Positions 2,625 to 50,754 of a stretch of 64,000 bases of DNA are shown in pieces (position 1 is the stretch's first letter; every line of letters begins with the position of its first letter). The notes under the pieces are model-generated. The model was not told the origin of the DNA and ran no database searches. It saw only the letters and a list, made by a program, of their open reading frames with translations. The DNA is from Patescibacteria group bacterium UBA6201 (GTDB lineage Bacteria > Patescibacteriota > Minisyncoccia > Phycocordibacterales > UBA918): assembly GCA_002422025.1 (NCBI GenBank), contig DISV01000004.1, positions 102,578 through 166,577 of the forward strand, read 5' to 3'. The translations under genes were made by a program, and so were the position numbers.

Positions 2625-2836
2625 ACCCAGAATAGCGGCTATTTCATTTCACCACAGGAGTACTTCCGTTTTCATAGTCGCTACGCTATTTGGAAACTAG
2701 GTCGCGCTACGCTTATGAAATAGGCTCGCTTTCTTGGTCGGCGCCTCCTCGTCTTGTTCGCAAGGAATGCTCACAAAACATCGTCCGACGCTTCAATCCT
2801 GACATAACAGTGAGCAGTCACTGTTACTGTCGATAG

Positions 2837-5162: not shown

Positions 5163-5528
5163 GAAAACCGCCTAATGGCGGCTTTTCTATTGCGCGAGCG
5201 AAGGGACTTGGTCACGAATATTTTCCTGCGTAAAATTTCTCGACCCCACCTCGCTTGCCTACGGCATCGCTCCGGCCTTCAAGCCCCTACACAAGCAAAG
5301 CAGTTTGCTTGTTTCGTTCGCGCAAACAAAAAAACGGCATGAAGCCGTATTTTGTTTGCGCGAGCGAAGGGACTTGAAACTTACAGTTTCGGTACACCTT
5401 TTGGCTGTTTCTGTTCACAAGCTCCAGAAATATCTCAAAAGGTCTTCAAGTCCCTACACAAAAGTCTCCCAGATTTTTGTTTCGCTCGCACAAAGTAAAA
5501 GCCCCCTAGTGGGGACTTTTATACTTTG
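5163..5528 (-). repeat. Three tandem modules (hairpin plus 20-24 nt copy of the tRNA-Asp 3' end) downstream of tRNA-Asp
   Basis: gcgcgagcgaagggacttg occurs at 5193-5211 and 5359-5377 and again as the genuine tRNA 3' end at 5528-5546; each copy is preceded by a GC hairpin; there are also inverted degenerate acceptor copies (cgttcgcgcaaac). Confidence 0.6.
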
Positions 5529-29052: not shown

Positions 29053-29140
29053 ACATCCACAGTATAGAGCATGTGTAATACTCTGTCTCCGCGAACAAAA
29101 CAGAATCACCCAACACTTGTGTGTTGGGCTGATTGTTTTG

Positions 29141-29227
29141 CGGAGGATGTGAGATTCGAACTCACGGGCAGTTTTACCCGCCGGCGGTTTAGTAAACCGC
29201 TGGTTTAAACCACTCACCCAATCCTCC
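29141..29227 (-). tRNA. Type II (long variable arm) Ser-like tRNA with apparent anticodon ACU
   Basis: Acceptor GGAGGAT/ATCCTCC, 3-bp D-stem GGT/ACC, anticodon arm GCGGT-TTACTAA-ACCGC, variable stem GGCGG/CTGCC, T-arm GTGAG-TTCGAAT-CTCAC. Confidence 0.5.
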
Positions 29228-29299: not shown

Positions 29300-29481
29300 C
29301 ACGGGGACGGAAGGAGGGATTCAGTCACGAATAATTTTGTAATACAAAATTTTCTCGACCCCAGCTCGCTGGCCTGCGGCATCGCTCCGCTTTTCGAATC
29401 CCTCCGTAAAGCAAAGCAGTTTACTTTACTCCTTTTCCGCCCAATAAAATAACCACCCTAGTGGGTGGTATTTTATACGGG
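29300..29481 (-). repeat. tRNA-associated repeat also present at the tRNA-Asp locus, plus partial and inverted copies of the tRNA-Ser 3' end
   Basis: aaaattttctcgaccccagctcgctggcctgcggcatcgctccg matches 5234-5277 with 3 mismatches; gacggaaggagggattc is a copy of the tRNA 3' end. Confidence 0.55.
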
Positions 29482-34792: not shown

Positions 34793-34866
34793 CCGCCCTT
34801 AGCTCAGTTGGTTAGAGCACAGAGCTTATACCTCTGGGGTCCTTGGTTCGAGTCCAAGAGGGCGGA
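34793..34866 (+). tRNA. tRNA-Ile (anticodon UAU)
   Basis: Acceptor CCGCCCT/AGGGCGG, D-arm TAGCTCAGTTGGTTAGAGC, anticodon arm CAGAG-CTTATAC-CTCTG, T-arm CTTGG-TTCGAGT-CCAAG. Confidence 0.7.
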
Positions 34867-34892
34867 CGGAATTTTTAATTTTCTTATACCTG

Positions 34893-35627: not shown

Positions 35628-37646
35628 CTAGACCTCCTTCCCCTTCATATGATCCGCATCGAATTCAATAGCGCTCGTTGGGTCACCTAGTCTTTCTTCT
35701 TCAAGACGCTGGTCGCGATAGAAATCCTTTATCTCCACACCTTCAGCTTTAAGAATTGCCTCATATTCCTCGCGCTCCAAAGTCTCTACCTCCAACAAAC
35801 GCATAGAAATAGCATCAAGTGCCTTGCGATTCTGAGACAATATCTCCTTAGCTGTTTCCATTCCTGTTGAGATAAGCTTTGACACCTCCTCATCAATTGA
35901 TTTTGCTACGTCTGGTGAATATCCACGATCCTCACCCACCCCACCACCAATCAAGCGTCCTCCAGAGCCTTCAAAGGCCACAGCACCGAGCTTATCACTC
36001 ATACCATACTTAGTGACCATATCGCGTGCGAGATTTGCTACAACCTGCAAGTCGTTAGACGGACCAGTGGTTAGATCGTCAAAAATCATCACCTCAGCTA
36101 CATAACCACCTAATGTCATTGCGATGTCATCAATAAACTCTTTGCGGGAATGCATCTTACGGTCTTGGTCAGGCAACTTCAAAGTATATCCGGCTGCACG
36201 ACCACGGGAGATGATAGATATCTTCTGTACCGGATCAGCATAAGGCAAGACCGAAGCAACCAACGCATGTCCAGCTTCATGATACGCAGTTACTTCTCTT
36301 TCTTTCTTCGAGAGCAAGTGGCTCTTGCGTTCTGGTCCAAGCATTACTTTTTCGATCGAACGAATAATGTCAAACTGTGACACTGTCTTACGCTCCTCGC
36401 GAGCCGCCAAGATAGCCGCTTCGTTCATCAGTGACTGCAAGTCAGCTCCAGAGAAACCTGGAGTACGAGTAGCGATAGTTGCAAGGTTCACATCTTCCGC
36501 CAATGGCTTCTTGCGTGCATGCACATTGAGAATCGCTTCACGATCGTCACGATCAGGTAGATCGATGGTTACACGTCTATCGAAGCGTCCAGGACGCACA
36601 AGCGCTGGGTCAAGTACATCTGGGCGGTTAGTAGCTGCCATCACAATCACCTTTTCGGTTGGCTCGAAGCCATCCATCTCTACCAGTATCTGGTTCAAGG
36701 TCTGTTCACGTTCATCATTTCCCCCACCAATACCAGTACCGCGGATGCGACCTACAGCATCAATTTCATCTACGAAGATGATTGCTGGAGCGGCCTTCTT
36801 CGCCATTTGGAATAGGTCCCGCACACGACTGGCTCCAACACCAACAAACATCTCTACAAACTCTGAACCAGAGATGGAAAAGAAAGGTACACCGGCCTCA
36901 CCAGCAACAGCCCGTGCCAATAGCGTCTTACCTGTTCCTGCCGGACCCATCAAGAGTACGCCTTTCGGAATTTCTGCACCGATATCCAAAAACTTTTTCG
37001 GATTCTTCAAGAAGTCCACTATCTCTTCTAACTCCTGCTTAGCTTCTTTGGCACCCGCCACATCTTTGAAAGTTACTTTTTGTGACTGATCATTAGGATC
37101 AATTACCCTTGCTTTGGACATTCCAAAATTCAGTGCCTGCATTCCAGCACCACGCATTGAACGGGTGAAGAACCAGATAATCAAGAGGAGAAAAATTATC
37201 GGGAAAATAAACGGAGCGAAGGTGGAAAGATAGTATGAGAAACCAGTCTCTTTCTGCACATCAATAGTCACACCGGCTATTTGTTCTGAAGTTACACCGA
37301 GATTAGCGAGCGTTTCCGTGATAGATGCATCAACTTCTTTCTTCCCTTCGGCCTTTGCCCTGGAGTCATCTTTATATGAAACCTCAAGTTTTGAACCGCG
37401 CACCACAATCTCACTAACCTCACCAGCCTTAACCCCTTCAGCAATGGCTGAGAGCGAAGCCTCTACTGGTTCTTCCTGACGTTCAGCAATATATGAATAT
37501 CCAGCCACAATCAGCATCAAAACTAAAATCGTCGACAGCATATTGTTCCAAAAATTGCCTGGACCAACTGGCATCTTCTTCATTAACATGGATGAACGAT
37601 TCCGCTTCTCTCCTTCTTTTTTATTCTTTATTTTTTTATCACTCAT
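35628..37646 (-). CDS. ftsH: ATP-dependent zinc metalloprotease FtsH
   Basis: Walker [12 protein letters not shown], zinc site HEAGHAL, N-terminal TMs. Confidence 0.9.
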
Positions 37647-37708: not shown

Positions 37709-38155
37709 GTGACTGACCTAATAAGAAACAAAAAAGCTGGGTTTAATTTTGAACTCCTCGAGCGCTATGAAGCGGGCGTGGAACTTTTAGGTATCGAAGT
37801 AAAATCTCTACGAAAAGGTCAAGGCAAACTCGAAGGCTCACACGTTATAGTTCGTGGTGACGAAGCTTATTTAGTCGGTGCCTCCATACCGGCTTTTCAA
37901 AAGGCCAACGCCCCAAAGGACTATGACCCGGAGCGAGTTCGTAGATTATTGTTGAAAAAAAAGGAGATTTTGGAGTTGTTCACAGAGAGTGAAAAGCGTG
38001 GTTTGACAATCGTGCCAATTCGGTGGTATAATAAAAACCGTTTAGTAAAGCTCGAAATCGCTATCGCTAAAGGTAAGAAAAACTATGACAAGCGCGAGAC
38101 CATTAAAGGTCGCGATACCAAACGCGAAATTGAGCGAACATTGAAAAACCAATAA
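37709..38155 (+). CDS. smpB: SsrA-binding protein SmpB
   Basis: 148 aa, typical SmpB sequence; tmRNA gene downstream. Confidence 0.9.
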   Translation: MTDLIRNKKAGFNFELLERYEAGVELLGIEVKSLRKGQGKLEGSHVIVRGDEAYLVGASIPAFQKANAPKDYDPERVRRLLLKKKEILELFTESEKRGLTIVPIRWYNKNRLVKLEIAIAKGKKNYDKRETIKGRDTKREIERTLKNQ

Positions 38156-38456: not shown

Positions 38457-38578
38457 ACTGTTCTTTTTAGGCGGACGCATATACTGTGTCCGCCATACCT
38501 TTGAGAAGTCAATTTACAACTGCCATTCGCTGAAAATTTGTGGGTATACTTTCTGAGTGCTTACCCCGTAAGCTTTCA

Positions 38579-38955
38579 GGGGATGACAGGCATCGACGGT
38601 TTGAATCGTTCATCCACGCAATGCCGAAATTGGAATCAATTCGTTAAAAGGTTCCATCTGTATCTGCAAACAAAGCAATACCAAGTCCGTTCTCATACGG
38701 ATTCGCCTTCGCTCGAGCGTAAGTTCGCGTAGGTGACGCTAACCTGCCCCACGTCTAATAAGGTTGTGTTAGTGGAATAGCATTGGACTCTAGATAATTG
38801 ATTTGTTCCATTAATTATCCAAATTGTTAGGAACTGCTCGTGTTGAGATTTTGCCAAATTTTTCACTTACCACGCTAAGATTTAAATCTGGCTATGCATT
38901 GTAGAAGTGTATGGACGACCATTCTCGGACGTGGATTCAATTTCCACCATCTCCA
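38579..38955 (+). ncRNA. ssrA: tmRNA (ssrA), standard one-piece
   Basis: 5' GGGGATGACAGGCATCGACGG (acceptor strand plus conserved GGC-ATCGACGG), 3' T-arm GTGGA-TTCAATT-TCCAC, acceptor CATCTCC, discriminator A; internal tag ORF starting GCAAAC and ending ...FAFARA-TAA; adjacent to smpB. Confidence 0.75.
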
Positions 38956-39159
38956 CGAGTACAAAAATCCGCTCGCACGAAAGTGCGGGCGATTTTTGTT
39001 CGTGGAGATGGTGAGAAAGCAAACTGTTTTGCTTTCGTGAAATTGAATCGGGCGGAGCGTTGTGTTTTTGCTCTTACTTAGGCAAAAACACCGCGAGCCG
39101 GGCCTGCAAGCACTTAGTATTTTAAGTGCGGAGCACGAATAAATACTTAGTGACTTGAT

Positions 39160-39184
39160 GGTTCAATTTCCACCATCTCCACCA
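39160..39184 (+). repeat. Near-perfect direct copy of the tmRNA 3' end (attachment-site-like), 205 bp downstream of ssrA
   Basis: ggttcaatttccaccatctccacca versus the tmRNA ggattcaatttccaccatctccac. Confidence 0.7.
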
Positions 39185-39323
39185 ATTCTGAAGCAAAACG
39201 AGCCTTATAAAATAAGGCTCGTTTTGTTGTATTTTGGAGAGATGTTTGGAAATTAGAACCTCTGTTTACAAACTATTATTTTTATAATATTGTTCGACTA
39301 GCTACACAGCTTGGAGACTTGAG

Positions 39324-39872
39324 ATGAAAACCATCTATGTAAGTCCTCGCAACGTGCAGATAACCACGGTAGATGGATGCCAGATGTCCGTCAAACTGGT
39401 ACTGGTACGCGAGGCGGGTGGTTTTATCAGTCTTCAAGACTGGAAACCACCTTCTGAACTGGATGATGTAGAAATTGTGCTGGTGAAGAGGCCCTGCTTC
39501 AAGCGATTACGACTACCACACGATGTAAAGCAAGCGATACTGCATTTCCTGCAACGCTACCACGCAAAACAGGACATATCGTTTGATTGCTACGCATTCG
39601 CCAACTTGGTCAAAGGGGTAAAAGTTCACAAAGTTCCTTTCATGCTCAAATACTGGAACAAGCGACCCAAACCCTGGTTTATTCCAGTTGGTTCAGTTGT
39701 ATTCTTCGAGAGCGGTGAGAACCGCTTCCACCATACAGCTGTCTACATCGGGTATGGACTGTACATTTCAGTCTGGGGTGCTGGTGGCGACCTCGAAGTT
39801 GCAACACTCAAATCAATGAAACGCGACTACGGCGCTGAACGAGTGATGTTCGCTGAACCAGTCGCTACTTGA
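39324..39872 (+). CDS. Island cargo 1: NlpC/P60-like (Cys-His papain-fold) putative hydrolase
   Basis: FDCYAF...VGSVVFFESGENRFHHTAVYIGYG follows the C..H..H spacing of NlpC/P60; GC-rich; own promoter-like module and intrinsic terminator (39869-39905). Confidence 0.45.
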   Translation: MKTIYVSPRNVQITTVDGCQMSVKLVLVREAGGFISLQDWKPPSELDDVEIVLVKRPCFKRLRLPHDVKQAILHFLQRYHAKQDISFDCYAFANLVKGVKVHKVPFMLKYWNKRPKPWFIPVGSVVFFESGENRFHHTAVYIGYGLYISVWGAGGDLEVATLKSMKRDYGAERVMFAEPVAT

Positions 39873-39904
39873 CCGCCTTCCCTTCGGGGTGGGCGGTTTC
39901 TTTT

Positions 39905-39992
39905 TCACCAGAAATCAACAATCTTCAAGAAACTCGGACACTCCATTTCAATCAAAGAGGTTTTAACTTGTAGTAAACTGCTCCACAGAATC
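39905..39992 (+). repeat. Cassette-junction module M1 (degenerate tmRNA 3' end copy)
   Basis: cttcaagaaactcggacactccatttcaatcaaagaggttttaacttgtagtaaactgctccacagaat; about 98% identical to 40813-40897; ctcggac...tttcaat...ctccacagaat echoes the tmRNA ctcggacgtggattcaattt...ctccaccaatt. Confidence 0.6.
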
Positions 39993-40133
39993 TGAAGCAA
40001 AAAGAGCCTTATATAATAAGGCTCTTTTTGTGCAATTTTTGACAGATGTATGGAAACTAGAACCTCTATTTACAGACTACTGTTTTCATTATATTGTTTC
40101 AATAGCTCTTTCAACTAAAACACGAGGTGAAAC

Positions 40134-40739
40134 ATGAGAGAAGTTTCTCTTACGCTCGACTATCTGACCATCGAACAGCTAATCGACCTTATCGACGAGC
40201 CGCATCGTTCGGTCTGCCAGCGCATTCTTGCGGACAACCGCAAACTCTTCGAAACAGCACGCGGTTCAACCCATAACCATCAGACATGGGACGGGGGTTA
40301 CATCGACCATGTCACTGACGGCATGAACTACGTGCGCCACCTCTACACGTTCGATGAGGCCTTCGGTCGACCTTTGCCATTCTCGATGTCAGATGCCCTG
40401 CTGGTCTTCTTCTTGCACGACCTCGAAAAACCTTGGCGTATCCTGGTCGATGAATCGGGGCAAGCATCAAACCGCGAGGGACTCGACACCAAAGCAACCT
40501 ACAAGGCATTTCGTGAAGAAAAGCTGGCATCGTACGGCCTCGAACTGAGCGACATGCAGTTCAACGGCTTCACGTACGTCGAAGGCGAACTTCATGACTA
40601 CACCAGCAAGCGGCGCGTCATGAACGAGCTGGCAGCTTTCGCCCACAAAGTCGACAACTGGTGCGCTCGTGGATGGTATGACTACCCCAAAGCCACTGAT
40701 GACGAGTGGACGGGCGCTGGTCGGATACGCACCACGTAA
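40134..40739 (+). CDS. Island cargo 2: HD-domain metal-dependent phosphohydrolase
   Basis: STHNHQTWDGGYIDH plus FFLHDLEKP (H..HD..D); about 55% GC versus about 44% surroundings; own promoter module and terminator. Confidence 0.6.
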   Translation: MREVSLTLDYLTIEQLIDLIDEPHRSVCQRILADNRKLFETARGSTHNHQTWDGGYIDHVTDGMNYVRHLYTFDEAFGRPLPFSMSDALLVFFLHDLEKPWRILVDESGQASNREGLDTKATYKAFREEKLASYGLELSDMQFNGFTYVEGELHDYTSKRRVMNELAAFAHKVDNWCARGWYDYPKATDDEWTGAGRIRTT

Positions 40740-40812
40740 CATCGTTACAACAACCACTGAATCTTGAATTGAAAGTCACCCTTTCGTTTCAACGATTGGG
40801 TGGTTTTCTTTT

Positions 40813-40897
40813 TCCCACAAATCCACTACCTTCAAGAAACTCGGACACTCCATTTCAATTAAAGAGGTTTTAACTTGTAGTAAACTGCTCCACAGAA
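40813..40897 (+). repeat. Cassette-junction module M2
   Basis: Near-identical to M1. Confidence 0.6.
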
Positions 40898-41000
40898 TAT
40901 AGAAATATATGGAAGATTAAGAGAGCTTACTCAGGTCTGAGTAAGCTTTCTTATTTTGTATAAAACCAGACATCCATAGTCCTCTACTGTTTTACACAGA

Positions 41001-41361
41001 TTATTTCTTCACACAGTGCAACATAAGGTCATTACCGTCAGGATCAGTGAAAAGCGCCATGTAACAGACAGGATTATCAAGAGTCTCGCCACTAAACACA
41101 ACCCCCCTTATCCTCTAATTCTTTACGTGCTGCTTCTATCTCATCGACATGAAGTGCAATATGAGCGTTCTTCTGTGGCGCGAACGACATGCCCATCTTC
41201 TCTGGTTCCCAGATACCAAAACAGGTGTCCCCTACCCAAAATTCATACTCTGCTTTTGGATCTGGTCTAAGACCTAAGGTGTCTATATAAAACTTCCGCG
41301 ACCGCTCTGAGTCAGTTGACGGCACTCCCACAAAATCAAGTTTAGTGATTTTATTTTCCAT
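41001..41361 (-). pseudogene. Island cargo 3: glyoxalase/VOC-family gene interrupted by a frameshift in a G6/C6 homopolymer
   Basis: N-terminal LDFVGVPSTDSERSRKFY...KGG (41092-41361) continues in another frame as VFSGETLDNPVCYMALFTDPDGNDLMLHCVKK* (41001-41100); the shift lies at cccccc, 41103-41108. Confidence 0.55.
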
Positions 41362-41404
41362 AGTTAAAATTTTAGTGGTTAATTATTTATTAATTGTACT
41401 ACAA

Positions 41405-41448
41405 ATTCACCACCCTCAAGAAATTCTGACACTCCATTTCAATCAAAC
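41405..41448 (+). repeat. Partial junction module M3
   Basis: caccaccctcaagaaattctgacactccatttcaatcaaa. Confidence 0.45.
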
Positions 41449-41635
41449 TAATCCTAACCAAGGACAAACTACTCCACCGATTCAAAACACCACTCTATCG
41501 AGTAGCATTTTGCTACCTATATATAGAAATTAGTTTGAATACCATGTACAAAATAGTATTTTCATTATATTGTTTGCCTCAGTTTTGAGGCTATTGCGCC
41601 AACAAGTACACCAACCCGCACCTTTACAGGAGGCC

Positions 41636-42436
41636 AAAATGGCTTTTAAGATTCGATTGTTCACACAGAAAGACCTCGATCGCATCGAAGCATATCATCG
41701 GGGAGAAATACAAAAACCCCAATGGATAATCGACTGGGAAAAGAAGATTGAAGATGCACGGCTGATACTCGCTGCTGCCGTTCATCAAGAGCTTCTGGAC
41801 CCCCATCAACAAACGCTGTACGTTCAGACTGTCGCTCAGATGATGCATCGGCGAGACCGCCTCTACGACATCTGGATGGAAGAGCTACCTTTTAAGACAT
41901 GGGAAGAACTCGCGAACGAACGTCCACCGTCTTCAGACGATCTGTTTCAATACACAGTTAAGGACACAGAAGACTACCTCAACGGCCCTGGAGTCTCAGC
42001 ATTTGTATGCTTCTTGGACCAACGGTGGAAGGGGTTCCTCAAGGACTTCGCCCATCAATGTCTTCGGGACTGCGACCCACTGATCGAAGAGTCATTCCTT
42101 ATGACTCCAGAAATTCGTCACACACTCTCCTACCCAGAACAAACCTTCGGTACTAGTAATAAGGAAATTCTTGAAGCTCGTCTGATTGAATGGACTAACA
42201 AGAAAATTCACACTGATACACCCTCATACGTCGTGCGGCTACTCGTTGCTAATGTATGGATAGCACTGGACAAAGAAATGAGTGCGCTGACGCAGATGGA
42301 GTTCGCTCGATGTGAAGCTGCGGAACCCAATTTCGAGCGAATGATGAAAGAAAAGGACCCGGCAACCGACCTCTATCTGACACAAGCGCAACGATGGCAG
42401 ATAGAAGTTCTTCTCAAAATGTGGCCAAGTTCATGA
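41636..42436 (+). CDS. Island cargo 4: hypothetical 266-aa protein
   Basis: SD acaGGAGGccaaaATG; stem-loop terminator at 42440-42480; no recognisable domain. Confidence 0.5.
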   Translation, partial: KMAFKIRLFTQKDLDRIEAYHRGEIQKPQWIIDWEKKIEDARLILAAAVHQELLDPHQQTLYVQTVAQMMHRRDRLYDIWMEELPFKTWEELANERPPSSDDLFQYTVKDTEDYLNGPGVSAFVCFLDQRWKGFLKDFAHQCLRDCDPLIEESFLMTPEIRHTLSYPEQTFGTSNKEILEARLIEWTNKKIHTDTPSYVVRLLVANVWIALDKEMSALTQMEFARCEAAEPNFERMMKEKDPATDLYLTQAQRWQIEVLLKMWPSS

Positions 42437-42625
42437 CCCGGCCACCTCGCCGCCTTCCCTCTGGGGGAGGCGGTTTCTTTTATATAGATCAGTTCGTTAA
42501 GTTGTCGCAAATCAACAAACTGATGATTCATATTAGTTTTTAACCACTCCTCTCTATGTTGGTTTAGTATACGGTGAGGTCTAAAGTTAGCTACTTTATT
42601 CATTCAGTTGTTCACAGTGGTATTT

Positions 42626-42654
42626 GACAAAAACACTAACTGGTCACATAATAA
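42626..42654 (+). promoter_or_regulatory. Consensus sigma70-type promoter TTGACA-N17-CATAAT
   Basis: ttgacaaaaacactaactggtcacataat. Confidence 0.4.
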
Positions 42655-42687
42655 ACACAGTTGGGAGGAAACCGGGGAGGAAGTACT

Positions 42688-42792
42688 ATGGAGTCAACAT
42701 GGGCATTGCCGGCAGCGATTTTTTTTGGATATGTCTGCCTGACCATCACTTGCAGTTACTGGTGGACACATTCTGGTCCATCTGACCCACAT
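42688..42792 (+). CDS. Hypothetical 34-aa hydrophobic peptide
   Basis: MESTWALPAAIFFGYVCLTITCSYWWTHSGPSDPH; SD gggaggaag; terminator at 42821-42850; below the ORF-track length cut-off. Confidence 0.3.
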
Positions 42793-42876
42793 TGAAAGTG
42801 GGTCAATCGAAGAATACAGGGTCCGGCGCATCTGCTCCGGACCTTTTGTTATGATATATTCTTAGTATCTTACGGT

Positions 42877-43491
42877 ATGAATTTTTCCCGTACCACAAAA
42901 AAGGTTATCGCTGTTGACTTCGATGATGTTGTAATGCACTTCAGTACTGGATTCTTAACTTTTCATAATCGGTTACACGGAACCAATTTGGTGTACGAAA
43001 ACCTCACTCGTTATGATGACTGGGAACTGACATACGGATGCGACAAGGAAACAATGGCAGGAAGAGCGACTGACTTCTACCACTCCCCCGATCATATGTT
43101 GGTACCACCGGTACCAGGGGCAGTTGAAGCGATTGCGTATTTATCAAAAACATATTCGCTTCAAATAGTGACCAGTCGGCCTGAATCTACTCGCTCGCCG
43201 ACTTTGAAATGGTTGGACAGTCATTTTCCGAAACTTTTTCACGACTTTCATTTCACTAACGGCTACGCGGGAGCCGCTGATGCCAAACTAAGGGCAAAAT
43301 CGGAAGTATGTCGTGAGATTGGTGCCGTAGTGCTGATTGATGACGCAATGAAACATGCTTGTGATGTTGCAAATAGTGGTATTCCCACCCTGCTTCCAAA
43401 CCGTCCATGGAACCAGGGTCCAGAACCGAAAGGAGTATATCGAGTATATTCATGGAAAGAGACCATTAAATGGATTAGTGAGAATGTTTAG
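42877..43491 (+). CDS. Island cargo: HAD-superfamily 5'(3')-deoxyribonucleotidase (NT5C family)
   Basis: VIAVDFDDVV (HAD motif I), ...VTSRPE..., LIDDAMKH; terminator at 43492-43532. Confidence 0.65.
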   Translation: MNFSRTTKKVIAVDFDDVVMHFSTGFLTFHNRLHGTNLVYENLTRYDDWELTYGCDKETMAGRATDFYHSPDHMLVPPVPGAVEAIAYLSKTYSLQIVTSRPESTRSPTLKWLDSHFPKLFHDFHFTNGYAGAADAKLRAKSEVCREIGAVVLIDDAMKHACDVANSGIPTLLPNRPWNQGPEPKGVYRVYSWKETIKWISENV

Positions 43492-43574
43492 GAACAAAAA
43501 CCAGACACACTAGTGTGTCTGGTTTTTGTTCCTTATGGTGTAAAGATTGTTTTGTTATATGTTAAAATCGCGCG

Positions 43575-43985
43575 ATGTCTAAAAAAGATTTTAAGGTTTT
43601 TAAAAGTAGTGCTGGCTTTGGGCTTAGGACACTGCGCGACTGGAAGAAGGGTGACCTGGTAATCGAGTACACTGGAAAGAAAATTACTAACAAAGCCGCC
43701 GATGACAAACCAAACCGTTACCTGTTTGATCTTGATGAGAAATGGACTATAGACGGCTCACCTCGCTCTAACCTCGCCCGCTATATTAATCACTCTTGCC
43801 GACCTAACTGCGAGCCAGTCCACTACACAGATACCAATGAGATAGGTATAGAAGCCTTACGAGATATAAAAACTGACGAAGAACTGACCTACGACTACGG
43901 AAAAGACCACTTTGAGGAATACATAGAGCCATATGGCTGTAAGTGTAGTTACCATATGAAGAAGCAAGGTAAGATTGTGAGCTAG
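43575..43985 (+). CDS. Island cargo: SET-domain protein (putative lysine methyltransferase)
   Basis: NHSCRPNC and ELTYDYG SET motifs, post-SET Cys cluster CKCSYH. Confidence 0.75.
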   Translation: MSKKDFKVFKSSAGFGLRTLRDWKKGDLVIEYTGKKITNKAADDKPNRYLFDLDEKWTIDGSPRSNLARYINHSCRPNCEPVHYTDTNEIGIEALRDIKTDEELTYDYGKDHFEEYIEPYGCKCSYHMKKQGKIVS

Positions 43986-44093
43986 AGAAATCGAGCAGCT
44001 ACTTTTCTACTTCCTATTCCTTATTCACTGATTTGTGTTATATTTTGTCTCAATCAGACTAAAGACTAGCTGGCGCCGCATTAAACATTTTAT

Positions 44094-44786
44094 ATATTAA
44101 GAGAAATCAATCTGAACAAACCAAGAACCTTCATCAACTACAATAAAGACCGTACTCGTATCAATGCCGCCATTAGGGCGAAGGAACTTCGTGTAATCGG
44201 CGCCAAAGGTGAGAACCTTGGTGTATTACTCCTCGACGACGCTAGGAAGGCAGCCGACGAAGCTGGTCTTGACCTAATTGAAATCTCCCCAAACGCCAAC
44301 CCTCCAGTGGCTAAGATAATGGACTTTGGTCAATTTCGTTATGAGACCAAACGTAAGAAAAGTGAGGTTAAAGCCAAATCACACGTTACCGAAACTAAGT
44401 CCGTTCAGGTTAAAGTTATTACCGGCGACCACGACCAGCAACTTAAAGCTCGACGTGCAGCTGAATGGCTTTCCGAAGGTCATCGCGTGAAGGCTGACCT
44501 TTTCCTTTCTGGACGATACAAGTACATGGATGAAGCTTTCTTGAAAGACCGACTGAATCGCTTCCTTAAAATCATTCCGATTGAGTACAAGATTGCTGAC
44601 CCTATCAAGAAGAGCCCAAAAGGTTACACTGTAACCCTAGAACGCGATGGAAAAGCTAAATACATCAAGGGCATAGAACTGGAAGATGTAAAACCAGCTA
44701 AAGTTGAGCCTGACGATAACTCTACAAACACACAAAAGGTGAAAAAGAAGTCATTGGACGAACTTATAGAGGGAGGATTAATCTAG
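44094..44786 (+). CDS. infC: Translation initiation factor IF-3, non-AUG start (AUA at 44094 or AUC at 44106)
   Basis: The in-frame upstream extension reads INLNKPRTFINYNKDRTRINAAIRAKELRVIGAKGENLGVLLLDDARKAADEAGLDLIEISPNANPPVAKIMDFGQFRYE; no in-frame ATG/GTG/TTG sits between the TAA at 44082-44084 and 44307. Confidence 0.8.
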   Translation: MLREINLNKPRTFINYNKDRTRINAAIRAKELRVIGAKGENLGVLLLDDARKAADEAGLDLIEISPNANPPVAKIMDFGQFRYETKRKKSEVKAKSHVTETKSVQVKVITGDHDQQLKARRAAEWLSEGHRVKADLFLSGRYKYMDEAFLKDRLNRFLKIIPIEYKIADPIKKSPKGYTVTLERDGKAKYIKGIELEDVKPAKVEPDDNSTNTQKVKKKSLDELIEGGLI

Positions 44787-48059: not shown

Positions 48060-48665
48060 TTATTCATTGATTCCATCAAAGTTCACATCATACATAATTC
48101 TCTCTTGAGCAGTGGAGTAACTCATTATCTCTTCGCCCTTAAACCAAATAGCGATTTCACGCTCCGCTTCTTCCGGTGATTCTGATTGGTGAACAAGGTT
48201 TCTCACCGCTCGATTCTCATAAGTAGCGTGTCCGTAGGAATCTACAGTGTAATCACCTCGGATAGTACCAACGTCTGAAGTGGATGGCTCGGTAGTACCA
48301 ACAATCTTAGTAACAACCGAGCAGGCCTGATTACCTTCGAGAATAAGGGCCACCACTGGAGCGGCAGTCATATAGTGCACGATAGTACGGATAATATCCT
48401 TTCCGTACTCCATCGGTTCTTTAGTAATCTCTTGACCTTGAGACTTAAGATCCTCGATAACACCCTTACCCTTTCTTTCATACCACTCGTCGGACTTATT
48501 GTAGTGTTCTAGGAGTTGCGCTTCAGTTGGGACGATCATTTTAAGCGCCGAAATCTTAAGACCGGTACGCTCAAAACGCTTAATTACTTCACCTACCAAT
48601 GACCGCTGTACGGTATCTGGTTTTAGGAGTACAAGTGAACGTTCTTGATGTGGTAATTTGTCCAT
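48060..48665 (-). CDS. ndk: Nucleoside diphosphate kinase (long form)
   Basis: LVLLKPDTVQRSLVGEVIKRFE..., NLVHQSESPEEAEREIAIWF; terminator at 48010-48045. Confidence 0.8.
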   Translation of the reverse strand: MDKLPHQERSLVLLKPDTVQRSLVGEVIKRFERTGLKISALKMIVPTEAQLLEHYNKSDEWYERKGKGVIEDLKSQGQEITKEPMEYGKDIIRTIVHYMTAAPVVALILEGNQACSVVTKIVGTTEPSTSDVGTIRGDYTVDSYGHATYENRAVRNLVHQSESPEEAEREIAIWFKGEEIMSYSTAQERIMYDVNFDGINE

Positions 48666-48765
48666 AAGATTTTGTTTTTAGAGCTGTACATTAAAAAGTT
48701 AGCCCGACTAATATACCTTAAAAGTGACTTAGCGCAAAGCCGGTTCGGCGTCCCAATTTCGTATT

Positions 48766-49557
48766 TTAGGTACCTGACCGAGGGCTCAAGGTGAGAATTT
48801 CGGGACCGTTCTCAGTCACCAGAACCGTATGCTCCATATGTGCAGCGATGTTGCCGTCCTCCGACCTTACTGTGTAACCATCCTCTTCGTCAAAGAAGAC
48901 CTCCTTACTGCCGTAAATTATCATCGGCTCAATCGCTAGCACCATTCCTGGCTTGAGTAATGCCCCTTTAACACCCTTTTGGACATAATTTGGTATCTGT
49001 GGCTCTTCGTGTAACGAATATCCCACTCCGTGTCCACACAAAGCCTCCACGATACCAAAGCCTTTGGGTACACTAGCTTCCACTGCCGCACCAATAGCAG
49101 ACACATAGGCACCGGGGCGAGCCGCCTCAATAGCAGCCTTTAGGGCCTTTGCAGTTACCGACACCAATGCCTTTGCTGCTTCATTACCTTCCCCACAAAT
49201 CACAGTCCGCGCAGAATCTAACACCATCTCTTGATAACCAATCACTAAGTCGATACTGACCACATCCCCCTCTTTAAAGGTGCGCAGAGTTTCATTTGGA
49301 ATTCCGTGCACCACTTCCTCATTCAAAGATACACAAGTAGCAGCCGGATACGGACGTGGAGCAAAGGTCGGATGATAACCCAAAATAATAGGCTCAAGGT
49401 TATACTGCTCCAAAAGCTCCATCGCTCTATCGTCTACATCAAGTGTAGTCGCCCCTGGGACTACCTCTTTCTCCAATTCATCAAGCACTAACGCCAAAAG
49501 CTTCCCGCCTTCGCGGAGCTTTTTAATATCTTCTTCTGTTTTTATAGTGATACCCAT
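48766..49557 (-). CDS. map: Methionine aminopeptidase type I
   Basis: Pita-bread fold metal ligands (D, D, H, E, E); 263 aa. Confidence 0.9.
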   Translation of the reverse strand: MGITIKTEEDIKKLREGGKLLALVLDELEKEVVPGATTLDVDDRAMELLEQYNLEPIILGYHPTFAPRPYPAATCVSLNEEVVHGIPNETLRTFKEGDVVSIDLVIGYQEMVLDSARTVICGEGNEAAKALVSVTAKALKAAIEAARPGAYVSAIGAAVEASVPKGFGIVEALCGHGVGYSLHEEPQIPNYVQKGVKGALLKPGMVLAIEPMIIYGSKEVFFDEEDGYTVRSEDGNIAAHMEHTVLVTENGPEILTLSPRSGT

Positions 49558-49585
49558 AAACGAATTTTAATTTCTAATTTTGAAA

Positions 49586-50179
49586 TTAGAGCGATAATGC
49601 CTTCAAAATATCCTGATGTACACTGGCGATATCTTTGGTTCCATCTATGTCATGAACGATGGTACTGGGTCGTTGTCGATAATACTCTACGACCGGTAAG
49701 GTCTGTTCACGATACCATTTTAGCCGTTCCTCAATAGAATCCGGTGTATCGTCAGGGCGGGCCCGAGAATTCATACGCTCCCGTACCACCTCTTCAGGGG
49801 TATCAAGGTTGATGATGTCGATCAAATTACGTTGATAAAATGCCAAAGCAGATTCGAGTACCTTCGCTTCGTCAATAATGCGGGGGAAACCATCAATCAA
49901 CAAGTGGCATTGACTATCCAGATGAGTACGCATCGCGTCTCCCCAAAGCACAGTCGAGAGAAAGAGTGGCTGAAGTACACCAGTGTTTAAGGTGTCTTGA
50001 ATATGTTTCTCGGTATAACCTTCCCCAGATGCCGCCATAGCGCGAAACCGTCGTCCTGTCTGAATATCTAACACTCGACGAGTTGGATCCTTCTCTTTTA
50101 GGACTTTATCGAGCCCATCAATCTGTGTTCCTTTACCACTACCTTGGGGGCCAATGAATATAACGGTTTTTGGTGTCAT
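49586..50179 (-). CDS. adk: Adenylate kinase (short lid)
   Basis: P-loop GPQGSGKGTQ; position secY-adk-map. Confidence 0.75.
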   Translation of the reverse strand: MTPKTVIFIGPQGSGKGTQIDGLDKVLKEKDPTRRVLDIQTGRRFRAMAASGEGYTEKHIQDTLNTGVLQPLFLSTVLWGDAMRTHLDSQCHLLIDGFPRIIDEAKVLESALAFYQRNLIDIINLDTPEEVVRERMNSRARPDDTPDSIEERLKWYREQTLPVVEYYRQRPSTIVHDIDGTKDIASVHQDILKALSL

Positions 50180-50754
50180 TTGCTGATTGCCTTTAGTACT
50201 TCTTGATAAACCACTTCCTCGTTTTGATCTGCATTAATGGTTACTACCTTGCCTTGGCTTTCAAAAAATTCCAATGAATGAATAGTTTCATCATAGAACG
50301 CTTGTAGGCGTTTCTTAATGTTTTCTTCAGTGTCCGACTGATCACGTTGTCTCTTGCGCATTCGCTCAACCACCACCTCATCTTCAGTATCCAGATGCAA
50401 CACAATATACGGACGGGCCAGCATAATATGCATTTCGTGAAGCTTCTTAGCCTCCTCTGGCTTGCGAGCCACACTTTCAAAGATTAGACCGCTATCTATA
50501 TGCTCTGCCAAAACAGCATTGGCAAACAAGTAACTAGCTAGCCATTCTGGTACCCATCCCGAAATATGAATATCACGGATATGGCGACCAAGCGACGAGT
50601 CTTCTGCGGACAATTCTCGTACACGATCCCCGGTGGAAAAAACTGGGAAGCCTAACGCCTTAGCCAAACGATGAGCCTGAGTACCTTTCCCACAACCGGT
50701 CTTACCTATGAAAATTATGCTCTGGTACGGTGTTTGTAGTTGATTCACCGTCAC
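50176..50754 (-). CDS. Second adenylate/NMP kinase paralogue
   Basis: P-loop GKTGCGKGTQ; overlaps adk by 4 nt. Confidence 0.65.
   Translation of the reverse strand: MTVNQLQTPYQSIIFIGKTGCGKGTQAHRLAKALGFPVFSTGDRVRELSAEDSSLGRHIRDIHISGWVPEWLASYLFANAVLAEHIDSGLIFESVARKPEEAKKLHEMHIMLARPYIVLHLDTEDEVVVERMRKRQRDQSDTEENIKKRLQAFYDETIHSLEFFESQGKVVTINADQNEEVVYQEVLKAISK

Follow-up and report, generated by a model that had tools for sequence, protein, structure and literature searches.

YhaM is among the 3' exoribonucleases of Bacillus subtilis implicated in maturing CCA-encoding tRNA precursors. The YhaM/Cbf1 enzymes are represented by structures from B. subtilis and Staphylococcus aureus (PDB IDs: 9h3f and 9o7t). 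YhaM has an OB domain at residues 20–90 and an extended two-metal motif, H..HD..HH..D, with active-site residues that include H163, H193, D194, and D274, and it has been placed among the two-metal HD "diphosphatases" together with YpgQ and the nucleotide-acting YqeK and SpoT (PMC12107432). Generic HD phosphohydrolases (PF01966; YfbR, YqeK, dGTPase/SAMHD1, SpoT/Mesh1, and HD-GYP) have an all-helical fold and H..HD..D ligands, both of which are shared by the HD protein described here. Among genomic arrangements, tRNA/tmRNA genomic islands start at a duplicated 3' end of the RNA gene, and CIME-like tandem accretions, whose elements have no integrase, and integron arrays consist of single-gene units with a recurring, uniformly oriented element between them. 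The attC sites of integrons are conserved in structure rather than in sequence. In the literature on tRNA-linked islands in Patescibacteria we found nothing relevant.

In the window, the whole stretch of 64,000 nucleotides from Patescibacteria group bacterium UBA6201 that was analysed, the initial annotation had described an HD phosphohydrolase and an NT5C-family nucleotidase as cargo of foreign composition on one island. Both reading frames were present (Table 1). Our analysis suggested that they are probably two unrelated things, a resident NT5C gene and a mobile HD cassette encoding a stand-alone YhaM-like enzyme.

The variable segment and its resident neighbour

Table 1. Features of the tmRNA–NT5C interval and its flanks, in window positions.
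Feature	Position	Strand	Remarks
tmRNA gene (ssrA)	38579..38958	+	anchor of variable region; ARAGORN; Rfam RF00023, 96 bits
~205-bp insertion in tmRNA 3' end	38957..39160	+	without counterpart in L012 and L015
Exact 21-nt copy of tmRNA 3' end (TTCAATTTCCACCATCTCCAC)	39162..39182	+	repeat family D9; direct sequence reading; followed by CA (reading ...CTCCACCA), then the native terminator
Module D2 copy 1	39177..39303	+	tmRNA end, hairpin terminator (39192–39228), and promoter-like site (39265–39293) before the 182-aa gene; 83% identity to 39981–40107
182-aa cargo gene	39324..39872	+	weak NlpC/P60 similarity, under Pfam cut-off; GC3 z=+3.3
Module D1 copy 1	39890..39991	+	conserved ~100-nt inter-cassette repeat; 3' end CTCCAC
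Module D2 copy 2	39981..40107	+	terminator hairpin 39997–40031; HD promoter-like site 40069–40097; conserved with L009 and L018 from 40067 on
HD-fold protein gene, 201 aa	40134..40739	+	catalytic domain related to YhaM, OB fold lacking; composition foreign
Module D1 copy 2	40797..40898	+	90% identity with copy 1; marks the right boundary of the conserved HD cassette
Hairpin terminator 3' of HD cassette	40918..40953	+	
Truncated glyoxalase/VOC-family ORF, 89 aa (remnant)	41092..41361	-	Pfam PF00903, profile positions 1–93 of 121
Module D1 copy 3	41381..41482	+	63% identical
288-aa cargo ORF	41570..42436	+	266 aa if the start is ATG at 41636; terminator 42449–42474; no match in family searches
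Last part of variable segment	42624..42850	+	strongest promoter-like site (42624–42652, TTGACA-17-CATAAT); 35-codon ORF 42688–42795 preceded by GGAGG; hairpin 42820–42850
NT5C-family HAD nucleotidase, 204 aa	42877..43491	+	native, syntenic backbone gene
Perfect 22+22-nt palindrome 3' of NT5C	43490..43533	+	probable terminator
SET-domain protein	43575..43985	+	Pfam SET E=3.9e-26; conserved place between NT5C and infC; 80–93% aa identity across L012, L015, L016, L017, and L024

The backbone order FtsH-SmpB-tmRNA-[variable]-NT5C-SET-infC was common to the window and five related genomes. The variable segment occupied 38957–42850; homology to the closest relatives broke off at 39251 and restarted at 42851, 26 nt 5' of the NT5C start in the comparison with L012. 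The gene content between tmRNA and NT5C differed in each relative compared, which bore out the proposal of a mobile hot-spot, and the HD gene lay inside it as island cargo, whereas NT5C lay beyond the point where homology resumed. The two genes were 2.1 kb apart with two further ORFs between them, one a truncated remnant. Their separate transcription was plausible, with promoter-like sites at 40069–40097 and 42624–42652 and terminator-like hairpins 3' of the genes; 10 terminator-like hairpins were observed against 4.6±2.1 in shuffled sequences. Neither an integrase nor another recombinase was found by Pfam among the ORFs of 38958–42850 or, in related loci and arrays, among the neighbours that recurred or directly adjoined. 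PADLOC, whose models include the dNTP-depleting dGTPase and dCTP-deaminase types, gave 0 matches for the seven proteins between SmpB and infC, and Rfam at relaxed thresholds gave chance-level matches only in 38900–41600, the tmRNA excepted. The GC content of the region was ordinary at 1-kb resolution.

The NT5C protein matched Pfam PF06941 (E=5.8e-10, 39.8 bits, cut-off 24.8; residues 9–197) and contained all of HAD motifs I–IV, in agreement with its assigned identity. Among 28 homologues, D14, D16, and D17 of motif I (D14-F-D16-D17), K141, and D156 were invariant, and T99 was nearly so. The family profile matched the human 5'(3')-deoxyribonucleotidases mdN and cdN in the PDB at 1e-5; these belong to the same family and have the same HAD motifs, but are distant, with an alignment spanning about the first 120 residues. 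Unlike mdN and cdN, the NT5C protein fell within an orthologue group specific to its lineage (40 clusters) and fixed beside the SET-domain gene and infC. It also matched the phage family phrog_420 at 1e-25. Compared with 35 reference ORFs, the composition of the gene was native (GC 0.444; GC3 0.405, z=0.1; codon z=0.0), so that the claim of foreign composition held for the HD gene (GC3 z=+8.1) and not for NT5C. Nucleotide identity of NT5C to L012 was 78.6%, against 79.5–82% for adjacent protein-coding backbone blocks. NT5C occupied the same position in L012, L015, L016, L017, and L024 (56–80% aa identity), and four of these genomes had it next to SET-infC with no HD gene in the interval: L012 (80% aa), L015 (78%), L016 (60%), and L017 (56%). 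The initial annotation had named conserved housekeeping families at syntenic positions in all relatives, for both genes, as the contrary case; this was found for NT5C in all five relatives, whereas the HD gene was present in the interval in L024 alone. NT5C is accordingly read as a vertically inherited resident of a Paceibacteria-type lineage in a fixed NT5C-SET-infC-rpmI-rplT backbone; most likely it removes phosphate from (d)NMPs, an ordinary housekeeping task in the nucleotide pool.

The HD protein and its cassette

The HD protein had no model match in Pfam (E≤0.01), NCBIfam, PHROG, or PADLOC, and a PDB search with the single sequence was also empty; against the family, the Pfam HD model PF01966 gave a weak match in 3 of 74 relatives (best 1.3e-3). 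Family assignment was obtained only through structure prediction and family profiles. Structure prediction, which the initial annotation had proposed as a check, gave an all-alpha, YhaM-related nuclease-like HD fold with a Foldseek probability of 1.0 for YhaM, and the significant PDB matches of a 74-sequence profile were YhaM entries only (2.5e-6 and 2.9e-4). In the profile alignment, LHDxEK of the HD protein lay over LHDLGK of YhaM (H193-D194), and the alignment began at YhaM residue 112, past the OB domain. The ligands H59, H95, D96, and D174 corresponded to YhaM H163, H193, D194, and D274; across 74 diverse relatives, H59 and H95-D96 were invariant and D174 reached a conservation of at least 90%, and all four were invariant among 32 close relatives. 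The HD-domain identity in the initial annotation was thus confirmed by the fold and the H..HD..D ligands. H49 and K99 were likewise invariant and H171 was nearly invariant. The HH pair of YhaM had no evident counterpart; spacing places E150-G151-E152 there, which may be the matching stretch, and H49 and H171 are alternative conserved histidines. Although the HD catalytic domains are homologous, the HD protein differed from YhaM/Cbf1 in having no N-terminal OB fold (no OB Pfam match) and in its length of 201 residues against about 314, and its gene had the distribution of an accessory gene, occurring in Patescibacteria, on megaplasmids, and in a huge phage, whereas YhaM is a conserved Firmicutes gene. 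Within the HD metal-dependent phosphohydrolase superfamily, the HD protein represents a clade not described before, and among solved structures it has just one detectable relative, the catalytic domain of the 3' exonuclease YhaM.

The HD gene was foreign in composition relative to the 35 reference ORFs, with a GC of 0.546 (z=+3.8), a GC3 of 0.658 (z=+8.1; in rounded values, 0.66 versus 0.40), and codon usage at z=-2.5. It formed a unit of approximately 0.83 kb, made up of promoter, CDS, and terminator plus a conserved repeat of ~100 nt; this unit was 82–87% identical in other genomes. Window positions 40067–40892 matched L009 2289–3114 at 82% identity among other neighbouring genes, the homology running out at 40892, and positions 39907–40874 matched L018 856–1828 at 86.6%. 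Judged from its sequence, the HD gene is a horizontally acquired, self-contained expression cassette, which would comprise promoter, Shine-Dalgarno sequence, CDS, terminator, and the ~100-nt D1, in a variable segment that probably accumulated behind the tmRNA.

Most comparison genomes were MAG contigs, and HD presence or absence was scored for the tmRNA–NT5C interval. HD homologues fell into 615 clusters at 90% identity, with 70–91% identity among the best 120 of the 615; clustering at 50% identity gave 519 (E≤0.001). Conservation was equal to or higher than that of SmpB within the same genomes, as in L036 (69% versus 59%), and the family is under strong purifying selection. Homologues occurred on four Variovorax plasmids of ~0.8 Mb (65% identity), in an uncultured 635-kb record deposited in GenBank as phage (LR745206.1, 44%), and in MAGs labelled DPANN and other archaea; IMG/VR matches were contigs of 61–608 kb and were not counted toward phage carriage. 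The family thus crosses phyla and prefers sites behind tRNA/tmRNA genes: a same-strand tRNA or tmRNA 3' end lay at most 350 nt upstream of 8 of 48 HD genes, compared with 10 of 468 other ORFs (Fisher p=7e-5). The adjoining RNA genes varied (His, Glu, Ser, Asp, and Tyr tRNAs, and tmRNA). In L021 and L027 the HD segment lay between duplicated tRNA 3' ends; at many HD loci, no flanking repeats of 12 nt or longer were found. From these positions we infer an insertion in which the cassette often came to lie directly 3' of tRNA/tmRNA genes, whose 3' ends would be partly duplicated around the insert.

Among 105 immediate neighbour proteins, no Pfam family occurred in more than two and none was an integrase, and no partner recurred when the ORFs lying up to 4.5 kb from HD were clustered all against all. 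One IS200-type transposase was seen among the neighbouring ORFs. The 182-aa gene of the window was rejected as a conserved upstream partner, being unrelated to the ~180-aa genes 5' of HD in L001 and L004. An excised circular cassette was also considered from a 929-nt Logan contig (L008, 8 samples) that begins and ends with an identical stretch of 22 nt; it was no evidence for a circle because its ends fall at a k=31 de Bruijn break in a 38-nt identical part of the D1 copies.

Candidate roles of the HD protein

The HD protein probably works alone as a divalent-metal phosphodiesterase or phosphatase, and the chances are about even that it acts on short single-stranded nucleic acids or oligonucleotides at their 3' ends. 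Because the OB domain is missing, the nuclease activity of YhaM may not extend to it. A tentative, less probable alternative is that its targets are free nucleotides, and that it is a housecleaning or salvage phosphohydrolase (5'-nucleotidase, NTP pyrophosphohydrolase, or dinucleoside-polyphosphate hydrolase, for example) spreading as a useful accessory gene among nucleotide-auxotrophic symbionts. One family member (P0225) was a fusion with a phosphoribosyltransferase (PRTase) domain, and some others neighboured nucleoside-deoxyribosyltransferase-like, NUDIX, or PRTase proteins, the first of these being homologous in L039 and Variovorax (E=1e-27 to 1e-32). The fusion and these neighbours point toward nucleotide metabolism and against a nuclease, as do the lack of a nucleic-acid-binding domain and the classification of YhaM with nucleotide-acting YqeK and SpoT (PMC12107432). 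Whichever substrate applies, its identification would add an enzyme to the few nucleic-acid and nucleotide tools of ultra-small bacteria that live as symbionts. The family is widespread and absent from Pfam, NCBIfam, PHROGs, and PADLOC; it is related to the nuclease domain of YhaM but stands alone.

It is improbable that the HD protein serves in cellular RNA processing, for example by trimming the 3' ends of tRNA/tmRNA precursors, with its position near RNA genes functional (such as co-expression) rather than a result of insertion. Homology to YhaM, the role of YhaM in CCA-encoding precursors, the enrichment within 350 nt downstream of tRNA/tmRNA genes, and the very strong conservation would fit such a role; however, the gene was found in this interval in one of five close relatives, was foreign in composition, and had its own promoter with terminators before it. 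The adjoining tRNAs varied, duplicated tRNA ends are typical of insertions, and HD genes also lay far from tRNAs on Variovorax plasmids and IMG/VR contigs. Very unlikely is the cooperation originally suggested, in which HD and NT5C would convert (d)NTPs to dNMPs and nucleosides in a depletion defence or an island-borne salvage module. Both enzymes could use nucleotides, the HD family sometimes adjoins or is fused to nucleotide enzymes, NT5C matched a phage family, and an NT5C homologue lay within about 0.5–2 kb of HD in the window, L024, and L039. These were, however, three of about 58 distinct HD loci, leaving more than 50 without NT5C, so that the suggested co-occurrence was not borne out. 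The pairing fails because NT5C is native and syntenic in four relatives without HD, HD is mostly without NT5C and has no recurrent neighbour, and PADLOC gave no match; the separate promoter-like and terminator-like sites, the two intervening ORFs, and the closer relation of HD to a nuclease than to dNTPases also argue against it. A two-enzyme defence or salvage module thus appears absent here, with NT5C as ordinary lineage housekeeping, and what is left is a loose tie of the HD family to nucleotide metabolism. L039 is a short contig, so that a shared tmRNA hot-spot was not demonstrable as the cause of the closeness of the two genes there.

Repeats behind the tmRNA gene

Nothing else at the locus is as unusual as the layout of repeat-bounded cassettes behind the tmRNA. 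As in tRNA/tmRNA islands, the variable DNA started at a duplicated tmRNA 3' end, an exact 21-nt repeat at 38936–38956 and 39162–39182. In L012 and L015, the tmRNA ran directly into sequence orthologous to 39161–39251, and the ~205-bp insertion was missing. The insertion and the displaced tmRNA end formed a structured unit of ~180 nt, matched by covariance model R1 at 39001–39184 (178 bits), with compensatory changes in 19 of 41 predicted pairs. As in CIME-like accretions and integron arrays, single-gene units were separated by a recurring element of uniform orientation, D1, which bounded unrelated cargo in other genomes in arrays of up to five copies. Unlike integrase-bearing islands and integrons, no integrase was found and each cassette had its own promoter and terminator; D1 was, unlike attC, conserved in sequence across genomes, and the array does not qualify as an integron. 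The repeat-bounded cassettes and the tRNA-end-duplicating unit hint at accessory-gene exchange in reduced genomes without an obvious recombinase.

The stretch might even be an undescribed kind of cassette array in which single genes with their own promoter and terminator are separated by sequence-conserved D1, while the adjoining structured unit would insert at tRNA/tmRNA 3' ends and duplicate 17–23 nt. In its boldest version, the YhaM-like, weakly relaxase-like HD protein would be a nucleic-acid-cutting enzyme that moves the cassettes, and promoter-HD-D1 would be a minimal autonomous element preferring tRNA/tmRNA 3' ends; taken jointly, we give this array and its mover a slim chance. The reverse strand of D1 had an open, coding-like frame in nearly all copies. 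We rejected the idea that D1 is what remains of the 3' part of a larger gene, an integrase for instance, as its conserved reverse-frame peptide matched just two called proteins (46 aa and 49 aa) in a search of 5.8 billion. D1 was similar to the final ~35 nt of the tmRNA, with which it shared the CTCCAC end, and this core was found again at 39981, 40888, and 41472.

NT5C and the conserved backbone

Both nucleotide-metabolizing genes that the initial annotation had placed in a mobile hot-spot were present, and the foreign composition attributed to them held for the HD gene but not for NT5C. The HD gene was strongly atypical in GC content (0.546, z = +3.8), GC3 (0.658, z = +8.1), and codon usage (z = -2.5), whereas NT5C was typical (GC 0.444; GC3 0.405, z = 0.1; codon usage z = 0.0; 35 long ORFs of the window). 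GC3 deviated mildly in the 182-aa gene (z = +3.3) and in the 288-aa gene (z = +2.8), the latter having no family match. Identical genes were carried by the ENA contig k141_604931 (233 kb), which represents the same organism as the window.

Assignment of the 204-aa protein to the NT5C family of HAD nucleotidases was confirmed by a score above the Pfam NT5C gathering score (E = 5.8e-10) and by a complete set of catalytic motifs, with D14, D16, D17, K141, and D156 invariant in the 28 homologues compared and T99 nearly so. A profile of the family matched PDB structures of the human 5'(3')-deoxyribonucleotidases, both mitochondrial and cytosolic, at 1e-5, and the orthologue group was small (40 clusters). 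From its family membership, the enzyme would serve in housekeeping dephosphorylation of (deoxy)nucleoside monophosphates.

NT5C occupied the identical position in all relatives with readable contigs, namely the homologous loci L012 (80% amino acid identity), L015 (78%; deposited as a Nomurabacteria MAG, GCA_020631995.1), L016 (60%; deposited as a Kaiserbacteria MAG, GCA_001779595.1), L017 (56%), and L024 (61%; MAG UBA918). The order FtsH-SmpB-tmRNA-(variable genes)-NT5C-SET-infC-rpmI-rplT was common to these five relatives, as was a beta-CASP/metallo-beta-lactamase RNase behind rplT, with an additional insertion between NT5C and SET in L017. DNA homology with L012 picked up again at 42851, 26 nt 5' of the NT5C start codon, and nucleotide identity to L012 was 78.6% for NT5C and about 79.5-81% for the downstream protein-coding genes. 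The shared synteny, the DNA homology with L012, and the native composition showed that NT5C is an ordinary, resident backbone gene, not the island cargo that it had been taken for. Conservation in all relatives at a syntenic place, which the initial annotation had named as grounds for refutation, is thus found for this gene. Genes for nucleoside-diphosphate kinase, adenylate kinase, and a second (d)NMP-kinase-like protein were found in conserved backbone 5-7 kb downstream (window about 48060-50700, placed by the L006 gene calls); the resident nucleotidase therefore lies in a nucleotide-metabolism-rich neighbourhood.

The SET-domain protein, 80-93% identical in relatives, lay between NT5C and infC (about 44090-44786) in five of five relatives; such a conserved neighbour is unusual in a translation-factor operon. 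The infC ORF as listed started with GTG at 44307 and encoded 159 aa without the IF3 N-terminal domain, which was encoded in-frame upstream (about 44090-44306, ...INAAIRAKELRVIGAKGENLGV...) without an ATG, GTG, or TTG start. This arrangement is consistent with the non-canonical AUU-type start for which infC is known. Backbone homology with L016 started at window position 44090.

Features between FtsH and rplT, with the structured units of the window and of homologous loci (L handles)
Feature	Position	Strand	Remark
FtsH	35628-37646	-	left flank
SmpB	37709-38155	+	left flank
tmRNA gene	38579-38958	+	left flank
Structured unit, tmRNA copy	38957-39184		
D2, two copies	39177-39303; 39981-40107		83% identical
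182-aa ORF	39324-39872	+	
D1, copy 1	39890-39991		
HD ORF, 201 aa	40134-40739	+	
D1, copy 2	40797-40898		90%
Glyoxalase/VOC-family ORF, 89 aa	41092-41361	-	truncated; sole minus-strand ORF between flanks
D1, copy 3	41381-41482		63%
288-aa ORF	41570-42436	+	
NT5C ORF, 204 aa	42877-43491	+	
SET-domain ORF, 136 aa	43575-43985	+	
infC, rpmI, rplT	from about 44100		right flank
Structured unit, other window copies	29303-29443; 5190-5324; 2743-2826	-	last copy weak
Structured unit, L016	2109-2273		
Structured unit, L017	7778-7920		
Structured unit, L021	6940-7100; 8874-9130		
Structured unit, L024	5802-5962; 6000-6160		
Structured unit, L042	5034-5215		

Family and predicted activity of the HD protein

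The HD protein matched nothing in the profile libraries Pfam, NCBIfam, PHROGs, and PADLOC, and a PDB search with the single sequence found nothing. Its homologues formed 615 clusters at 90% identity; among the matches listed (the best 120 of 615), nearly all were about 200 aa, 70-91% identical, mostly from Patescibacteria MAGs, and without a precomputed Pfam domain. Among 1.84 billion 50%-identity representatives, 519 clusters belonged to the family at E <= 0.001, most of these proteins being stand-alone and 170-220 aa long. When a profile of 74 diverse members was compared with the PDB, YhaM/Cbf1 structures were the sole significant matches (9h3f, 2.5e-6; 9o7t, 2.9e-4), in an alignment spanning the LHDxEK / LHDLGK motif. 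In the 74-member alignment H49, G55, H59, H95, D96, and K99 were invariant and E98, R161, H171, D174, and R179 nearly so; three of the 74 relatives gave a weak match to Pfam HD and four to TraI_2, labelled a putative helicase in Pfam, which is the domain of MOBH-type relaxases that contains HD. The ligands of the two metals bound by YhaM are H163, H193, D194, H250, H251, and D274, and its nucleic-acid binding is through an N-terminal OB domain, residues 20-90 (PMC12107432). H59, H95-D96, and D174 of the HD protein matched four of these six ligands, bearing out the earlier reading of an H..HD motif, whereas the HH pair had no clear counterpart, E150-G151-E152 probably standing there by spacing, and the OB domain was absent. 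By sequence, the protein is assigned to a YhaM-related clade undescribed in the libraries searched, and none of the classes proposed for it (dNTPase, (p)ppGpp hydrolase, cyclic-nucleotide phosphodiesterase) fits. Among family members, P0164 and P0170 had an N-terminal domain of about 265 aa with a zinc-ribbon-like CxxC...CxxC at its start and no Pfam match, and P0295 had the HD module duplicated in tandem.

The suggestion that HD and NT5C form a functional pair or defence module was not supported. When all ORFs within 4.5 kb of HD were clustered in about 50 non-redundant loci, the largest real clusters, a thioredoxin-reductase-like flavoprotein and a penicillin-binding protein of the mraZ-murE cell-division cluster, contained five loci each, and no recurrent partner emerged. 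NT5C was near HD in three loci only: the window, L024, where both genes were in the same tmRNA interval as in the window, and L039, a 6-kb contig too small for its context to be resolved, which also encoded a protein with nucleoside-deoxyribosyltransferase-like and NUDIX domains. In a Pfam scan of the 105 proteins directly adjoining HD, any one family was represented by at most two proteins, and no integrase was present.

The HD protein would act alone as a divalent-metal HD hydrolase, with a promoter of its own for expression. We give about an even chance to a phosphodiesterase whose substrates would be the 3' ends of short single-stranded nucleic acids or oligonucleotides, a reading favoured because a 3' exonuclease is the only relative of solved structure to be detected and because some relatives weakly resemble a relaxase domain. 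A nucleotide phosphohydrolase, for which the missing OB domain, a PRTase-HD fusion (P0225), and some of the neighbours speak, is the less likely alternative; this fusion and the PRTase or NUDIX genes near HD in a few loci hint at a link with nucleotide metabolism. The gene is a member of an uncharacterised, mobile, YhaM-related HD family.

Transfer of the HD gene and probable insertion behind tRNA and tmRNA genes

Gene content between tmRNA and NT5C differed among relatives, with DUF4386, PspC, and PadR in L012 and L015, VanZ, DoxX, DUF305, a sigma factor, and OMP decarboxylase in L016, and pectate lyase in L017; only L024 had the HD gene there. Window 40067-40892 and L009 2289-3114 shared 82% identity; in L009, which was deposited as a Magasanikbacteria MAG, HD adjoined methyltransferases and an MGMT-like gene. 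The conserved block comprised a promoter-like TTTACA...TATATT, a GAGGTGA ribosome-binding site, the CDS with its terminator, and D1. Window 39907-40874 was likewise 86.6% identical to L018 856-1828; the HD gene moves together with its flanks. In genomes allowing both comparisons, HD was conserved more than or similarly to SmpB (69% versus 59% identity in L036, 69% versus 60% in L037, 67% versus 59% in L042, and 76% versus 78% in L024). Four Variovorax isolates carried 65%-identical relatives on replicons of about 0.8 Mb deposited as plasmids (for example L072, Variovorax sp. WDL1 'plasmid 2', NZ_LR594690.1 649023-665616), where the neighbours encoded RNase HII, AlkB, a macro-domain protein, RecX, two NUDIX hydrolases, a nicotinamidase-like cysteine hydrolase, a nucleoside 2-deoxyribosyltransferase-domain protein, NAD kinase, and peptidyl-tRNA hydrolase. 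The family is in this way shared across phyla with Patescibacteria. A 44%-identical copy was on LR745206.1, a 635-kb record deposited as uncultured phage, and others were in MAGs labelled Nanoarchaeota, Methanosarcinales, Bdellovibrionota, and others, labels that are no better than the binning.

In 8 of 48 species-level loci, a same-strand tRNA or tmRNA gene had its 3' end no more than 350 nt upstream of where HD starts, compared with 10 of 468 other ORFs of the same loci (Fisher p = 7e-5). The eight upstream genes were tRNA-His, tRNA-Glu (two), tRNA-Ser, tRNA-Asp, tRNA-Tyr (two), and one permuted tmRNA call, and more HD genes were 0.6-4 kb behind tmRNA or tRNA-Glu. In two loci the DNA carrying HD was bracketed by duplicated tRNA 3' ends: in L021 by a 17-nt repeat together with an approximately 80-nt module, 92-98% identical on both sides, and in L027 by an exact repeat of 19 nt. 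The HD gene kept its own promoter and was preceded by terminators; the adjacency looks like insertion at tRNA ends and not a functional operon.

Relative to L012 and L015, the 3' end of the window tmRNA contained an insertion of about 205 bp (38957-39160), which duplicated 21 nt (38936-38956 and 39162-39182) and displaced the original tmRNA end and terminator to 39161-39251. A structured unit (covariance model R1) of about 140-260 nt, typically about 180 nt, recurred behind tRNA and tmRNA genes. In order, it comprised the acceptor 3' strand of the tRNA or tmRNA gene in reverse complement, a conserved hairpin (GCAAACTGYTTTGC), the T-arm, likewise reverse-complemented, a conserved core (GGCGGAGCG...GCGAGCCGGG), and the last 17-23 nt of the gene, copied in direct orientation. 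The ends co-varied with the host tRNA, compensatory changes occurred in 19 of 41 predicted pairs, and there was no Rfam match. Since the unit was present after the window tmRNA and absent from L012 and L015, it behaves like inserted DNA that duplicates a long target. This unit and the cassette and repeat architecture behind tmRNA were unexpected by-products of the analysis.

D1 repeats and single-gene cassettes

D1 followed the 182-aa gene, the HD gene, and the glyoxalase remnant, and part of the displaced tmRNA end and terminator recurred after the 182-aa gene as module D2. D1 aligned with the last approximately 35 nt of tmRNA (CTCGGAC...TTCAAT...CTCCAC). Within 38501-44400, CTCCAC occurred five times on the plus strand (at the tmRNA end, the 21-nt duplicate, and the end of each D1 copy) and its complement once, within the structured unit; the D1 core motif was found nowhere else in the 64-kb window. 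A scan of metagenome contigs found the core in 10 further loci, and in three of these it was 0.7-0.8 kb behind a tmRNA gene. Outside the window, D1 was present in L080 (five copies), L077 and L018 (three each), L074, L076, L078, L079, L083, and L009. In several loci, among them L080, L077, and L018, the copies had one orientation, were spaced by 0.7-2.6 kb, and enclosed one or two unrelated genes, among them DUF305, PspC, DUF5667, HsdM, dihydroorotate dehydrogenase, and a histidine-phosphatase-NUDIX fusion; no recombinase was among the genes between copies in related arrays. D1, an element of about 100 nt with conserved sequence, is the recurring boundary of single-gene cassettes.

The reverse strand of D1 had an open frame ending in ...V(K/R)T(S/C)LIEMECPNFLKIVDLW and a stop codon in about 20 of 21 genuine copies, the conserved end also being given as ...SLIEMECPNFLKIVDLW and stop. 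Variation was 0.24 at third codon positions versus 0.16, and no longer parent protein was found in a collection of 5.8 billion proteins. D1 might serve as a recombination site, as a micro-ORF, or in both capacities. Cassettes might be inserted by recombination at tmRNA-like D1/CTCCAC sequences with an enzyme encoded elsewhere, or by homologous exchange between D1 copies following DNA uptake.

The 89-aa ORF between D1 copies 2 and 3 aligned only with positions 1-93 of the 121-position glyoxalase/VOC Pfam model and probably represents cargo that has decayed. A small unit bordering the variable segment on its right side (42624-42850) had the region's best promoter-like site (TTGACA-17-CATAAT), a 35-codon ORF behind GGAGG (42688-42795; MESTWALPAAIFFGYVCLTITCSYWWTHSGPSDPH) of hydrophobic, membrane-like appearance, and a GC-rich hairpin with a T-run (42820-42850). 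ARAGORN called a tRNA-Ile with anticodon UAU (window 34793-34867; same call in L015, L017, L024, and L027) and a tRNA-Ser with anticodon ACU (window 29140-29227) adjoining tRNA-Ser(GCU), both anticodons being unusual for bacteria.
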